NCBI GenBank assembly: GCA_018819225.1
Contig: JAHJQN010000007.1
Location: 1 to 64,000 of the forward strand
Source of the DNA: Candidatus Micrarchaeota archaeon
GTDB lineage: Archaea > Micrarchaeota > Micrarchaeia > Norongarragalinales > SBBD01
DNA: 64,000 nucleotides
Reading direction: 5' to 3'
Below, piece after piece: positions 7,606-34,985 of this stretch. The position numbers were made by a program, and so were the translations under genes. Within the stretch, counting starts at the first letter, position 1. Each line of letters opens with the position of its first letter. Under the pieces are notes generated by a model. That model did no database searches, was not told where the DNA came from, and was given only the letters and a program-made list of their open reading frames with translations.

Positions 7606-7971
7606 ATGGAAATGAACGATGAAATGAAGAGACAACTCGCCGACTTTCAGCAACTGCAGCAGCAATTGCAGATGGTATCGTACCAGAAGCAACAGATCGC
7701 TCTCCAAGTTCAGGAATTGGAAAAGGCCTCCGAAGAGCTCGGGAAATCCGCGGAAGGAAAAACAGTGTACCGTTTTGTAGGCACGTTATTTGTTCCTAAA
7801 AACAAACCGGAACTCGCGAAAAATTTGGCGGATGAAAAGGAATCGCTACAGCTTCGCTTGAAGTCCGTACAGAAGCAAGAGGAAAAACTAACAGAACGTT
7901 TAGAATCCATTAAAAAATGGTTCGACAAAGCCCAAAGATCAGGGGGAGAAAATGCGTCAATAGCCAAATAA
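7606..7971 (+). CDS. pfdB: Prefoldin beta subunit
   Basis: Coiled coil-VYRFVGTLFV hairpin-coiled coil, 121 aa; GAGGT RBS. Confidence 0.92.
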   Translation: MEMNDEMKRQLADFQQLQQQLQMVSYQKQQIALQVQELEKASEELGKSAEGKTVYRFVGTLFVPKNKPELAKNLADEKESLQLRLKSVQKQEEKLTERLESIKKWFDKAQRSGGENASIAK

Positions 7972-8059
7972 ATATCGGCGGAAGACGTATTTTTAAGTAT
8001 AAAGCCCTTGAAATGGAAAGGTATTTATAGGAGGTCGCGGCTTATAATAGTGCACTCGA

Positions 8060-8708
8060 ATTTAAGCGTTGGTGGTATTGGAGAGAAACAAGACAAAAAA
8101 CCAATCTCTTCTTCTCAAGGATTTGCCTCCTTTGGGTTGTTTGTCCTCTTCTCTCGCACCACCTTAATAGACTCCTAGTGAGCGTGTGAGCTAGGCGTTT
8201 TCTTCGCGAATACGGTTTAACGCTTTTTGATGAGAGGAACCGGTCTCACGACCGACTTCATTACAAGCCGGACGATTCGTCGGATTCGCTTTCGCAATAT
8301 TCCGTCCATTTTTCATGCACATACTTCAAGGTACTCGTCCACCGCATGGACAAACGTTCTTCTTCGATTTCAATCACCCGAATTCAAAGGGAAGAGAAAG
8401 CAGGATAACGCGAGAGACTTTCAAAACCATATGTCGGATTATGCCTCCTAGCGGTTCGGCTCTCCAATCGTCAGAGCCTGCTTTCACGCACTCAATTTCA
8501 GCACATCACCTCTGGGATATGGTTAATCAAAAAAAAACATAAAGGAGACTAACGGCTTCGCCAATCCAAAACCAGTCCACGTTTTCAAAGCCGAAAACGC
8601 ATCATCCTGTTACGCTCCCTTAATGGTAAAGCGCAACAGATGGAGGGGGCTCATGCTAAACCGCGTGCACGACAGATTCCAGCGGATGCTTGAGTCCATT
8701 ATTCCTCT
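8060..8708 (-). ncRNA. Putative large structured non-coding RNA (core ~8708-8233, possible 3' domain to ~8060)
   Basis: BRE/TATA at 8746-8732; 5' AGAGGAAU pairs with GUUCCUCU (8240-8233); at least 8 helices whose G-U pairs and GNRA loops favour the minus strand; no credible ORF. Confidence 0.6.
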
Positions 8709-8731
8709 AAGAAAAAGAAGAAGACTCATCC

Positions 8732-8746
8732 TATAAAAACGTTTCG
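8732..8746 (-). promoter_or_regulatory. BRE + TATA box for the putative ncRNA
   Basis: Minus strand reads CGAAACG-TTTTTATA, ~24 nt upstream of the predicted RNA 5' end. Confidence 0.6.
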
Positions 8747-8833: not shown

Positions 8834-9604
8834 CTAAACTCGTTTTTTTCCTTCCTTTTTCATGGCCTCCCGCACGGAACGGATCTTCTTGCGAATATCC
8901 CCTCCTTCAAATGCCGTGCCGATTTGAATGCCGTCCGCACCCGCCGCAATCACTTCCGCGGCTTGCTTCGGCGAGCGTATACCCCCCGCACAGAAGTACA
9001 CGACATCGTCACTGCATGCTTTTGCAATCGAAGCAATCATCTCGTTTGGAACCGGCTCCGGCGCACCGCTTCCCACATCCGAAATCAATACGTGGCTCCC
9101 AGAGAATCTCGCGGATAACGCACACGCCGCAGCCAAATCCGCTCGCGCACGCGGCACCAGGTTCGCGTTTCCGATCCATCCGACCGCTTGACCCGGTTCA
9201 ACGACTAAATAACTGGTGGGAATCGCCTCGATTTTCGAGCGATATACGACGGGAGCCGCCTGAATCTGCGCCGTCGAAAGCCAGTACACGTCCCGCGAGT
9301 TCATCATCTGCATGAAGTACACGGCGTCGGCGTGATGCGTTAAACCCGAAATGTTTCCAGGAAATAACACGACGGGAATCTTGACTTCCTCCTTGATCAT
9401 GCGTACGGTTTCATCCAATTGCGAGCCTTGCGCACCCAAACTCCCGCCAATCAAGATCACGTCGCTTCCTTCCTCGTACGCGGCCTTCGCGATTTCGACT
9501 CCGCGTTCCAAGAAACTTTTATCCGGGTCGATAAGGGAACACAATAAGCAGCCTTCGCTCTCCAGCTTTTCTTTGTAATACCGTTCCGTCTTTCCGGGCT
9601 TCAT
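8834..9604 (-). CDS. Geranylgeranylglyceryl phosphate synthase (PcrB/GGGPS family)
   Basis: LIDPDK, ILIGGS, PVVLFPG, SYLVVEPG, GSGA, GGIRS motifs. Confidence 0.92.
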   Translation of the reverse strand: MKPGKTERYYKEKLESEGCLLCSLIDPDKSFLERGVEIAKAAYEEGSDVILIGGSLGAQGSQLDETVRMIKEEVKIPVVLFPGNISGLTHHADAVYFMQMMNSRDVYWLSTAQIQAAPVVYRSKIEAIPTSYLVVEPGQAVGWIGNANLVPRARADLAAACALSARFSGSHVLISDVGSGAPEPVPNEMIASIAKACSDDVVYFCAGGIRSPKQAAEVIAAGADGIQIGTAFEGGDIRKKIRSVREAMKKEGKKRV

Positions 9605-9663: not shown

Positions 9664-9783
9664 TTATGAAACGGGGACAAGGCGCATTCGAGTACGTTCT
9701 GCTGATGGCCGGCGTGCTGCTCATCGTCGTACTCTCCGTCGCCGTATTCCGCGGACTCTCCGGAAAAAGCCTGGTTCAAATCC
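9664..9783 (+). repeat. 120-bp exact direct repeat, copy 1 (pilin N-terminus cassette)
   Basis: Identical to 10559-10678. Confidence 0.95.
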
Positions 9784-10508
9784 AAGAAAGCACGGAGAAA
9801 ATCGAGGATCTTAATTGTCTTCCGCATTACTGGAAAAGCCAACACGAAACCATTCTAGCATACCGCATGAATGAAGGCAGTGGAAGCATCGTGCATGATC
9901 AAGGCCCGAAGCAAAACCACGGCGACGTAACGGGAGCGGAATGGGCGACCGACATTTGTAAGTTTGGCACGTGTTTGAAGTTCGATGATGACGATGACCA
10001 AGATCAAATCGTTCCCGAACAAATGGTGGCATTAGGCCCGGACGGAATCACCGTCATGTTATGGTATACTGCCGATGGCTATCAGACAGATGATCTGCAG
10101 CCCATTCTATTCCGAGGCAGTCCGTCTTTATCATTCATGTTTGACTTATCGGTTCCCGGAGGAGGGCCCGCGTCCAAACTGCAGGGAAACCTTCGATTCG
10201 TTGTGGCTACGGCTTCCGGAGCCGCAAGAGACGGTACGGACGAATTTCAGTTAAACCCCAACGAACCGGCCCACATTGCATTTACGTATGACGTAGCAAC
10301 GCAAGAAAAAGAGATTTACATCAACGGGGAACGTCAAGGAGTCAATCCAACAGGGAGTGGCGCCATATTGACGACTCCCGGCACCATCGTCATTGGAAAC
10401 CGTATGGATACCATGTTTCTAAACGGACGGGTCAGTGATCTAGCTGTATACAGCCGAGCGCTCACCCAACGAGAAATCCAGCAACAAATGTGGTGCTCGG
10501 TCCGTTGA
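9666..10508 (+). CDS. Class III signal peptide (pilin-like) protein with LamG domain
   Basis: MKRG|QGAFEYVLL; MNEGSGSIVHD, HIAFTYD, IYINGE, LAVYSRALT LamG motifs. Confidence 0.88.
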   Translation: MKRGQGAFEYVLLMAGVLLIVVLSVAVFRGLSGKSLVQIQESTEKIEDLNCLPHYWKSQHETILAYRMNEGSGSIVHDQGPKQNHGDVTGAEWATDICKFGTCLKFDDDDDQDQIVPEQMVALGPDGITVMLWYTADGYQTDDLQPILFRGSPSLSFMFDLSVPGGGPASKLQGNLRFVVATASGAARDGTDEFQLNPNEPAHIAFTYDVATQEKEIYINGERQGVNPTGSGAILTTPGTIVIGNRMDTMFLNGRVSDLAVYSRALTQREIQQQMWCSVR

Positions 10509-10558
10509 CATCTAACCCCATAACAGAAAACTATATCTACCGATGCGTCTTAGTGGTA

Positions 10559-10678
10559 TTATGAAACGGGGACAAGGCGCATTCGAGTACGTTCTGCTGA
10601 TGGCCGGCGTGCTGCTCATCGTCGTACTCTCCGTCGCCGTATTCCGCGGACTCTCCGGAAAAAGCCTGGTTCAAATCC
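10559..10678 (+). repeat. 120-bp exact direct repeat, copy 2
   Basis: Identical to 9664-9783. Confidence 0.95.
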
Positions 10679-11421
10679 GAGAAAACGTGGAAACCGTCGG
10701 GCGATTCGTTTGCTATCCTCTTTATTTGAAAGAGCCAAGCATTGGAGAAATCGTCTGGAAAATGAATGAAAATGGCGGCAACATATTGCACGATGAAACG
10801 ATTCCAAGAATCAACGGGTTATTGGGAGACGGGGAAGCGAGCAGGATGCCGACTTGGCGGAATACCGCTGAATGCAAGTACCCCCCGTGCCTTCGTTTTG
10901 ACGGATTGGACGATATTGTGGTTAGCGAATCCTCACCGAATGTGTCAGGGGCCAACGGATTCACGTATGAATTCTGGGTTTTGTTCGAGGATATGGGAAG
11001 CGGCCATACCGCGTATATCGCCAATAAAGTAAGCACGTTCAACATTTTCATACGACAAACCGACATCGCCATTACGCCTCAAGGAAGCGTTCCGGCAGGC
11101 GTTGAGTTCCACTTCTTTCCACAAGGAGAGGCGTTAACGGTGAGCGACCCGGAAACCGTTTACACGCTGACTCCCCACCATATTTTGGTCACGTACGATG
11201 CGGGTACGAAAACCGCTCGGCTCTATATTGACGGAAGGCTCATTGGGGAGGATACGGCAAGTGGAACCGGGGCGATCGTCGATACCGGAACCCGCCTCTA
11301 CGTCGGAGGATTTCCCGGACTGGATTTGTCCGTGCAGGGAATGATCGATGAAGTGCGATTGCTGACTCGCGGCGTTAATGAAGAAGAGGTCCAGGACCTG
11401 TTTCAATGCACGGTGACCTAA
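10561..11421 (+). CDS. Class III signal peptide (pilin-like) protein with LamG domain, paralog 2
   Basis: Same first 39 aa as paralog 1; LRFDGLDD, HHILVTYD, LYIDG, GMIDEVRL. Confidence 0.88.
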   Translation: MKRGQGAFEYVLLMAGVLLIVVLSVAVFRGLSGKSLVQIRENVETVGRFVCYPLYLKEPSIGEIVWKMNENGGNILHDETIPRINGLLGDGEASRMPTWRNTAECKYPPCLRFDGLDDIVVSESSPNVSGANGFTYEFWVLFEDMGSGHTAYIANKVSTFNIFIRQTDIAITPQGSVPAGVEFHFFPQGEALTVSDPETVYTLTPHHILVTYDAGTKTARLYIDGRLIGEDTASGTGAIVDTGTRLYVGGFPGLDLSVQGMIDEVRLLTRGVNEEEVQDLFQCTVT

Positions 11422-34866: not shown

Positions 34867-34985
34867 GCTCCCTTCGTCTAGCTCGGTCAAGGACTCTGGC
34901 CTTTCGACTTTCCTGCTCCAAACATGCGCATGGGAATGGGAAAAAAAGAAAGCCAAAAACACGGGTTCAAATCCCGTAGGGAGCA
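34867..34985 (+). tRNA. tRNA-Glu(TTC) with a 44-nt intron at canonical position 37/38 (34907-34950)
   Basis: GCTCCCT/AGGGAGC acceptor stem, D arm, anticodon TTC at 34903-05, T arm ACGGG-TTCAAAT-CCCGT; BHB-like motif with CTTT/AAAG central helix; TTATTAAA promoter. Confidence 0.9.

Follow-up and report, generated by a model that had tools for sequence, protein, structure and literature searches.

A putative antisense RNA pair, with a kink-turn RNA and a small-protein family, between the prefoldin beta and GGGP synthase genes of Micrarchaeota

The window analysed in this work is a stretch of 64,000 nucleotides from a Candidatus Micrarchaeota archaeon. Based upon genome comparison within one order of Micrarchaeota (probably the Norongarragalinales; 68 genomes), the gap between its genes for the prefoldin beta subunit and geranylgeranylglyceryl phosphate synthase (GGGP synthase) holds two convergent transcripts, a plus-strand hairpin RNA (RNA-H) and a minus-strand RNA with a kink-turn in its 5' domain (RNA-K). 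Computational comparison established the two RNA families and how they are linked and oriented, together with the kink-turn, the sites of complementarity between the two RNAs and, in the window's family, a family of small open reading frames (ORFs) within RNA-K. We regard both RNA families and the small-protein family as new, and as most likely acting like known antisense pairs, and we lean towards the reading that the gap encodes a sense/antisense pair in which RNA-H is the antisense regulator and RNA-K its target or sponge. The literature that was searched contains no description of regulatory RNAs in Micrarchaeota. The features of the locus are as follows.

7606 to 7971, plus strand: prefoldin beta subunit gene (PF01920), the synteny anchor in 10/10 family genomes
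8016 to 8029, plus strand: BRE and TATA box of RNA-H, with conserved TATA spacing
8052 to 8165, plus strand: RNA-H, a hairpin RNA of about 110 nt, recognised by model matches, an exact motif and G.U bias
8261 to 8368, minus strand: small ORF of 35 codons, most likely with an AUC start, led by a Shine-Dalgarno (SD) sequence and with homologues in relatives
8374 to 8389, minus strand: site A2, overlapping the SD sequence GGGUGA (8379-8374); predicted 14-bp duplex with the RNA-H 5' tail, -16.8 kcal/mol
8436 to 8449, minus strand: site B (AGGAGGCAUAAUCC), complementary to the invariant RNA-H loop; duplex -26.0 versus -16.6 +/- 2.2 for shuffles
8488 to 8503, minus strand: site A1, complementary to the RNA-H 5' tail; duplex -17.0 kcal/mol; adjoins a conserved GAGGUGRUG box (8512-8504)
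8529 to 8567, minus strand: hairpin followed by U9, a terminator-like match and possible attenuator
8573 to 8609, minus strand: kink-turn, with C-stem CAG/CUG, GAU bulge, tandem G.A pairs and NC stem with loop
8603 to 8642, minus strand: hairpin P2 (a CAUC...GAUG helix in the first-pass annotation), judged by its upstream partner against the shuffled mean
8643 to 8707, minus strand: 5' hairpin P1 of RNA-K, the local partner of its 5' end, a local fold in most homologues
8731 to 8746, minus strand: BRE and TATA box of RNA-K, seen in the sequence, with a distance to the kink-turn conserved in family loci and other families
8834 to 9604, minus strand: GGGP synthase gene (PF01884, TIGR01769)

As a BLAST-type DNA search of 60 relatives yielded chance fragments only, homologues were sought through the flanking genes, whose linkage holds in the family genomes, and through synteny and motifs. 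The family gaps have two short motifs, A and B, in common, each found near 8050-8135 and again within the minus-strand RNA. Pattern matches at L062 and L069 proved to be chance matches in a kinase gene, the motif AAGTCGTAA was too short a query to be informative, and the L141 locus was left out of the scoring of pairing sites and lengths. In the genus g4 (L051-L057), genes for an oligopeptide transporter-like protein and a protein of sugar-kinase fold (pantothenate kinase-like), both seen by their N-termini only, are inserted back-to-back with the RNA-K promoter. Elsewhere in the window, positions 9666-11421 encode two tandem proteins with class III signal peptides and Laminin G domains, whose near-identical 5' ends indicate a recent duplication, and a tRNA gene at 34867-34985 is 119 nt long and hence probably contains an intron.

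A model of RNA-H built from 13 family-level copies found matches in 52/68 genomes of the order. The genes around these matches vary; a TATA box precedes them on their own strand at a constant spacing, which is 22-23 nt from the conserved start within the family and 33-36 nt from a GAAU motif throughout the order. Exact copies of the loop motif are present in 55/68 genomes, compared with 3 matches for the reversed control, and a broader model matched 15 of 18 genomes of the same order and gave two weak partial matches among 132 genomes of other orders. The conserved parts of the RNA are its 5' tail (8052-8068) and the invariant segment GGAUU(U)GCCUCCUU (8119-8132). U-tracts lie 3' of RNA-H in 16 of 27 copies, and in the window RNA-H may extend to those at 8197-8203 or 8224-8228. 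RNAalifold found no consensus stem in the RNA-H alignments because the stems are out of register, and RNA-H is thus without a formal covariation count; G.U pairs in 47 TATA-bearing copies favour the plus (RNA-H) strand by 131:76. For the hairpin of this genome the better fold is that of the minus strand (z -5.0 versus -2.6), as it is in G001. RNA-H occurs without a detectable RNA-K in G001 (97% complete) and G004, as would fit a regulator with other targets.

Paralogues of RNA-H carry their own TATA box on the CCUCC strand. One of these, in this genome at L215:259-338 (G000 C7 50959-51038, minus strand; E 0.006), has its own TATA box and lacks the conserved 5' tail; others, in L168, L173 and L177 (G011, G016 and G017), lie back-to-back with genes that by their N-termini are Lrp/AsnC-like, and G011 has five copies of the motif. 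Such arrangements, together with the presence of the box in both orientations downstream of TATA boxes, could suggest that a transcription factor binds the repeated box (palindrome AAGGA-N6-TCCTT) as a DNA operator, the flanking stems being incidental. We consider this explanation extremely improbable, as each copy lies in a long stem whose arms change in sequence while their pairing is kept and whose G.U bias is strand-specific, the motif lacks symmetry, and the distance between the TATA box and the conserved 5' tail is fixed.

The minus-strand BRE and TATA box lie where the first-pass annotation had placed them, and in most of 22 loci the TATA box is kept about 120-150 nt before the conserved kink-turn; RNA-K would start near 8708. 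Its 5' part, of about 140 nt, is conserved across several families. The kink-turn geometry was observed in 11/11 loci, with the tandem G.A pairs intact in 10, and it covaries: in an alignment of 14 sequences 94.5% of the cells are paired and 10 double changes are seen, which none of 500 shuffles reach, although kinship among the sequences inflates these counts. L7Ae-family genes are present in the genome and the kink-turn is expected to be an L7Ae site. When a model of the kink-turn module was applied to genomes outside the set from which it was built, ten matches were obtained. Seven of them, in three other families, converge with an RNA-H gene on the opposite strand, at a distance of 109-309 nt. 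After the eighth come two B-like boxes, and the remaining two are probably chance matches. The seven new matches beside RNA-H indicate that at least four families have RNA-H and RNA-K side by side as a convergent pair.

Upstream of the kink-turn, P1 is variable in sequence, has no formal covariation count and is energetically one of three options in this genome. For P2, the upstream partner beats the shuffled mean in 18/22 loci, a modest effect. Since the 3' strand of P2 overlaps a strand of the kink-turn, the two folds compete, and the recurrence of this competing partner is a modest signal of a switch. It could be argued that the 5' region of about 180 nt is an attenuator or riboswitch-like switch, in which P2 would compete with the kink-turn ahead of the hairpin and U9 run (8567-8529) in order to control read-through into the ORF, with RNA-H pairing being secondary. 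The recurrence of two mutually exclusive partners and the terminator-like hairpin are in keeping with this proposal, and L7Ae switches a leader in a like manner in other archaea (PMC6298567). However, the kink-turn lies about 200 nt or more from the SD sequence, the terminator is not conserved in other families, the 5' domain persists where no ORF follows, and no invariant ligand-like core was seen besides the kink-turn. This explanation is therefore given little credence. The U9 run is predicted to pair with 8382-8351, at the start of the ORF.

Beyond the 5' domain, RNA-K becomes variable. The length from its promoter to the RNA-H gene ranges from about 210 to 960 nt (211-958 nt), the variable part has no structure shared among homologues, and outside the window's family the RNA is short and without an SD-led conserved ORF. 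No clear minus-strand terminator was found in the window. There is no minus-strand U-tract between the ORF and about 8100, which suggests that RNA-K probably runs past 8233.

These results bear upon the first-pass annotation, which read 8233-8746 as a single non-coding RNA of about 480 nt, closed by a helix between 8708-8701 and 8240-8233 and comparable to OLE or ROOL. Its observations are partly confirmed and its interpretation is partly supported. The arms of all of the helices that it quoted are present in the sequence, no Rfam family comes near threshold (best E 4-10), and the RNA is neither RNase P nor SRP RNA, the genome's own copies of both being encoded elsewhere. Its preference for the minus strand is likewise borne out, with z-scores for 8233-8708 against dinucleotide shuffles of -3.79 (minus) and -2.45 (plus). 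An undescribed, promoter-driven, structured minus-strand RNA is thus upheld, but not one closed non-coding molecule. The 5' end in the window has three partners within 5 kcal/mol of each other, namely 8233-8240, 8166-8175 and the local hairpin, of which the local hairpin recurs in homologues, unlike the long-range helices, which differ in every homologue. Given these near-equal partners, the variation of the long-range helices and the varying length between promoter and RNA-H gene, the closing helix does not count as a conserved feature.

Additionally, where no credible ORF had been noted, an SD-led ORF of 35 codons is present at 8368-8261, and relatives have homologues in the corresponding position. 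The three 3' helices of the first-pass annotation fall within or just beyond it; those at 8353-8335 and 8307-8270, while real in the sequence, lie inside the ORF, in a segment with a z-score of -0.2 versus shuffles. The feature also does not end at 8233, as the convergent RNA-H gene (8052-8165) lies beyond the coordinates then given. The folding score for exactly 8233-8708 (z -3.8), the thermodynamic feasibility of the closing helix and the lack of an AUG at the expected place in the window's ORF are what a single closed RNA would have in its favour; set against a more than fourfold variation in length, differences among homologues in the closing and all long-range helices, and a conserved SD-led ORF in the 3' third, they leave that reading very unlikely. 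Although RNA-K resembles OLE, ROOL and GOLLD (10.1101/2024.12.08.627333) in being long, folded, promoter-driven and from uncultured microbes, it differs from them in having no Rfam match, no conserved global fold, a variable length and a coding region inside it, and in being one half of a pair. The OLE, ROOL and GOLLD covariance models gave no match at E<=10 in the window region and none of relevance in 12 homologous loci.

For the small ORF, an in-frame AUN or NUG codon is present in 10/10 loci 6-8 nt after a GGUG Shine-Dalgarno box, and as the organism's own 16S rRNA tail is GAUCACCUC, GGUGA represents the native SD sequence. The codons at this position are AUG in three loci, AUC in three (including the window, at 8368), UUG in two, and AUA and GUG in one each; GUG at 8377 and AUG at 8347 are alternative starts of the window ORF. 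A contig that is probably the source of the window has an agreeing sequence, the AUC included. Mismatches by codon position (499/422/598) are highest at the third position, and eight peptides align on a short T-x-x-Y-L core. A profile of the peptides found two proteins outside it (E 9e-7 and 4e-6). The gene for one of them is tail-to-tail with that for prefoldin beta; the other shows the gene order of the window, and its DNA contains the promoter, kink-turn, A, B, SD sequence, ORF and RNA-H. Both resemble the main group. The window's peptide is more distant, about 21% identical to the main group, and its membership rests on its likeness to those of G002 and L071. In G005 and G010 (L052:902-1063 and L057:907-1068) the slot is occupied by a different, Arg-rich ORF of about 53 codons.

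The small proteins are soluble and belong to no known family. The maximal hydropathy over 19 residues is -0.49 for the window's peptide and ranges from -0.59 to 0.51 among the eight peptides; searches of Pfam, NCBIfam and PDB gave no match, Atlas searches gave no usable or only weak matches, and AlphaFold predicted one low-confidence helix (pLDDT 65). No such ORF was found outside the window's family, and in other families the peptide profile gave nothing convincing.

This restriction of the ORF is in accord with an alternative, which we judge unlikely, that RNA-K is primarily a non-coding RNA of a ribonucleoprotein with a role of its own, composed of the 5' hairpins and kink-turn and perhaps with the hairpin's reverse complement as its end, with the ORF as a family-specific passenger and the plus-strand promoter making only a regulatory antisense copy. 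The shortness of RNA-K in other families, the lack of a minus-strand U-tract before about 8100 and the better folding of the hairpin on the minus strand in G000 and G001 all point in this direction. Other observations run counter to it: RNA-H is found without RNA-K in G001 and G004, its paralogues have their own TATA boxes on the CCUCC strand, which the overall G.U bias also favours, and the variable part of RNA-K lacks a shared structure.

The sense/antisense reading, which we prefer, is based upon the complementarity of the two RNAs. A site B internal to RNA-K is present in 12/12 family-level loci with RNA-K and in 3/9 loci of other families, far above shuffles. Sites equivalent to A1 are found in most family members, and a duplex of the A2 type is also predicted in G002 (-20.8 kcal/mol); site A scores only 1.5-4 SD above shuffles and is absent in some loci. 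The SD sequence is predicted to be paired in cis in every fold tested for the window and for G002, with mixed results in other genomes. TATA-bearing hairpins favour the CCUCC strand and leader copies mostly the GGAGG strand.

Unlinked loci also contain the box that complements the loop of RNA-H. A gene for a 63-residue, probably membrane, protein is located at L213:113-450 (G000 C6 131313-131650, minus strand) and at L236:1360-1690 (G002). In both genomes its leader has two or three GGAGGCA boxes complementary to the loop, and in G000 the last of these is at the SD position. TATA-led hairpins with a loop-complementary box and no clear ORF, at L214:190-280 (G000 C2 96090-96180, plus strand) and L099:310-430 (G002), are candidates for further sponges or targets of RNA-H. 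The box in the leader of this gene and in these two promoter-led RNAs suggests that RNA-H has targets in trans. Additional matches of a 12-nt motif in family genomes were rejected as targets, almost all of them being coding (KEAI), and a search for double boxes was uninformative.

Based upon these results, the following mode of action is proposed. RNA-H would be an independently transcribed, base-pairing regulator of about 110 nt. RNA-K would open with a structured kink-turn domain, expected to bind L7Ae, followed in the window's family by direct-repeat copies of the two conserved segments of RNA-H, read in the opposite direction, and then by the small ORF. The RNA-H loop would pair first with site B, after which its single-stranded 5' tail could pair with A1, or with A2 over the SD sequence, keeping the small protein off, and RNA-K would in return titrate RNA-H. 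Translation of the ORF may already be weak by design, with its SD sequence paired in cis and a putative AUC start. In families without the ORF, RNA-K would meet RNA-H through an internal copy of B or by reading into the RNA-H gene, and as no ORF is present it would act there only as an antagonist; in the 6/9 other-family loci that lack an internal B site, pairing would need such putative read-through.

The occurrence of convergent promoters at fixed spacing, the covariation of the kink-turn and the presence of the whole predicted layout in a locus found only through its peptide all argue for an antisense pair. Against it, complementarity is also expected from plain duplication of a hairpin gene, A and B do not follow each other in the leader in the antiparallel order that a simple duplex would have, the hairpin of the window folds better on the minus strand, the window's peptide is divergent, and two genomes carry a different ORF. 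The features computed for RNA-H, namely an independent promoter, a conserved seed and complementary sites near a ribosome-binding site, are those of archaeal base-pairing sRNAs with a small-protein target.

Of the known systems, the par locus of Enterococcus faecalis (Fst / RNA I - RNA II), a type I toxin-antitoxin locus (PMC7472228), shares with this gap convergent promoters, two direct repeats that become complementary by being transcribed in opposite directions, sequestration of the SD sequence of a small ORF in cis (predicted here) and a non-AUG start. It is this likeness, as well as the occurrence of orphan RNA-H genes but of no orphan ORF (none was seen without RNA-H), that might suggest a toxin-antitoxin module of the par kind, with the small protein as toxin and RNA-H as antitoxin. 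Such a role appears improbable. The par toxin is hydrophobic, with a PXXXG motif and a conserved Trp, whereas the peptide here is soluble, without a transmembrane helix or PXXXG motif, and no hydrophobic segment was found in the eight peptides. Further, the RNA pair is kept in families without the ORF, its chromosomal position among housekeeping genes is fixed, and the exact loop motifs were absent from the viral contigs searched. Unlike in par, the target RNA has a kink-turn 5' domain and the locus is archaeal. As for the bidirectional terminator shared by the two RNAs of par, none was recognised here, where U-tracts follow RNA-H in some copies and the window shows no clear terminator on the minus strand.

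Within the archaea, Methanosarcina mazei has small-protein RNAs with a neighbouring antisense RNA (spRNA/asRNA pairs; 10.1101/2025.10.28.685009), and its sRNA162 has two domains, masks an SD sequence or ribosome-binding site and acts upon cis and trans targets (PMC3510493). The present pair can be set beside these by description, without an Rfam link, as an archaeal small-protein RNA with an adjacent antisense RNA; it differs in pairing through repeated boxes, in the long kink-turn leader of its target and in spanning a DPANN order. The kink-turns to which L7Ae binds in the leaders of archaeal mRNAs occlude the ribosome-binding site directly (PMC5539422, PMC6298567). The kink-turn described here is similarly a standard one, in a 5' leader with a competing fold, but it lies upstream by some 200 nt or more, and loci in which no ORF follows retain it too.

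Other candidate identities were considered and set aside. The kink-turn is of the kind that terminates box C/D guide sRNAs, but here it is internal to a longer RNA; there is no RUGAUGA, its two strands enclose a paired stem, and complements to the rRNA operon occur at chance level. An HDV-like ribozyme was suggested by CGAAU and GCC-UCC motifs, but CGAAU is located 5' of the loop, a GG junction does not follow, the L3-like G can be replaced by U, and Rfam gave no match for it. Resemblances to SAM-I, fluoride, glycine, cobalamin and lysine riboswitches, T-box, tmRNA and H/ACA RNA are likewise unsupported by Rfam. A split 16S rRNA, suggested by a 16S match that ended early, was rejected, since a group I intron interrupts the gene and its 3' end resumes. 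In this 16S gene of G000 (L130:3008-3776, C3), the intron has group I-like ends, encloses an ORF and lies immediately 5' of helix 45; a further short insertion is found near L130:2150-2210, and the anti-SD tail is shortened (GAUCACCUCA). The RNA-H loop resembles the canonical 16S tail, but the organism's own tail is GAUCACCUCA and pairing of the loop with its own SD sequences is weak (-5 to -9 kcal/mol), so that its acting as an anti-SD mimic is only remotely conceivable.

The results of this work provide two RNA families with models, predicted pairing at named sites and an unannotated small-protein family that often has AUC, AUA, UUG or GUG starts. The RNA pair marks an order for which a lower dependence on hosts than in most DPANN archaea has been suggested (PMC12892359). 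In a broader and decidedly tentative view, an order-wide network may exist in which a shared GGAGGCAAAUCC box allows the hairpin RNA to silence several messages for small proteins and the L7Ae-bound kink-turn RNA serves as its sponge, the sponge of the window's family having become an AUC- or AUA-started message for a soluble peptide, possibly within a par-like toxin-antitoxin. If true, a par-like layout that includes a kink-turn and a soluble peptide would represent a new design of archaeal antisense control.
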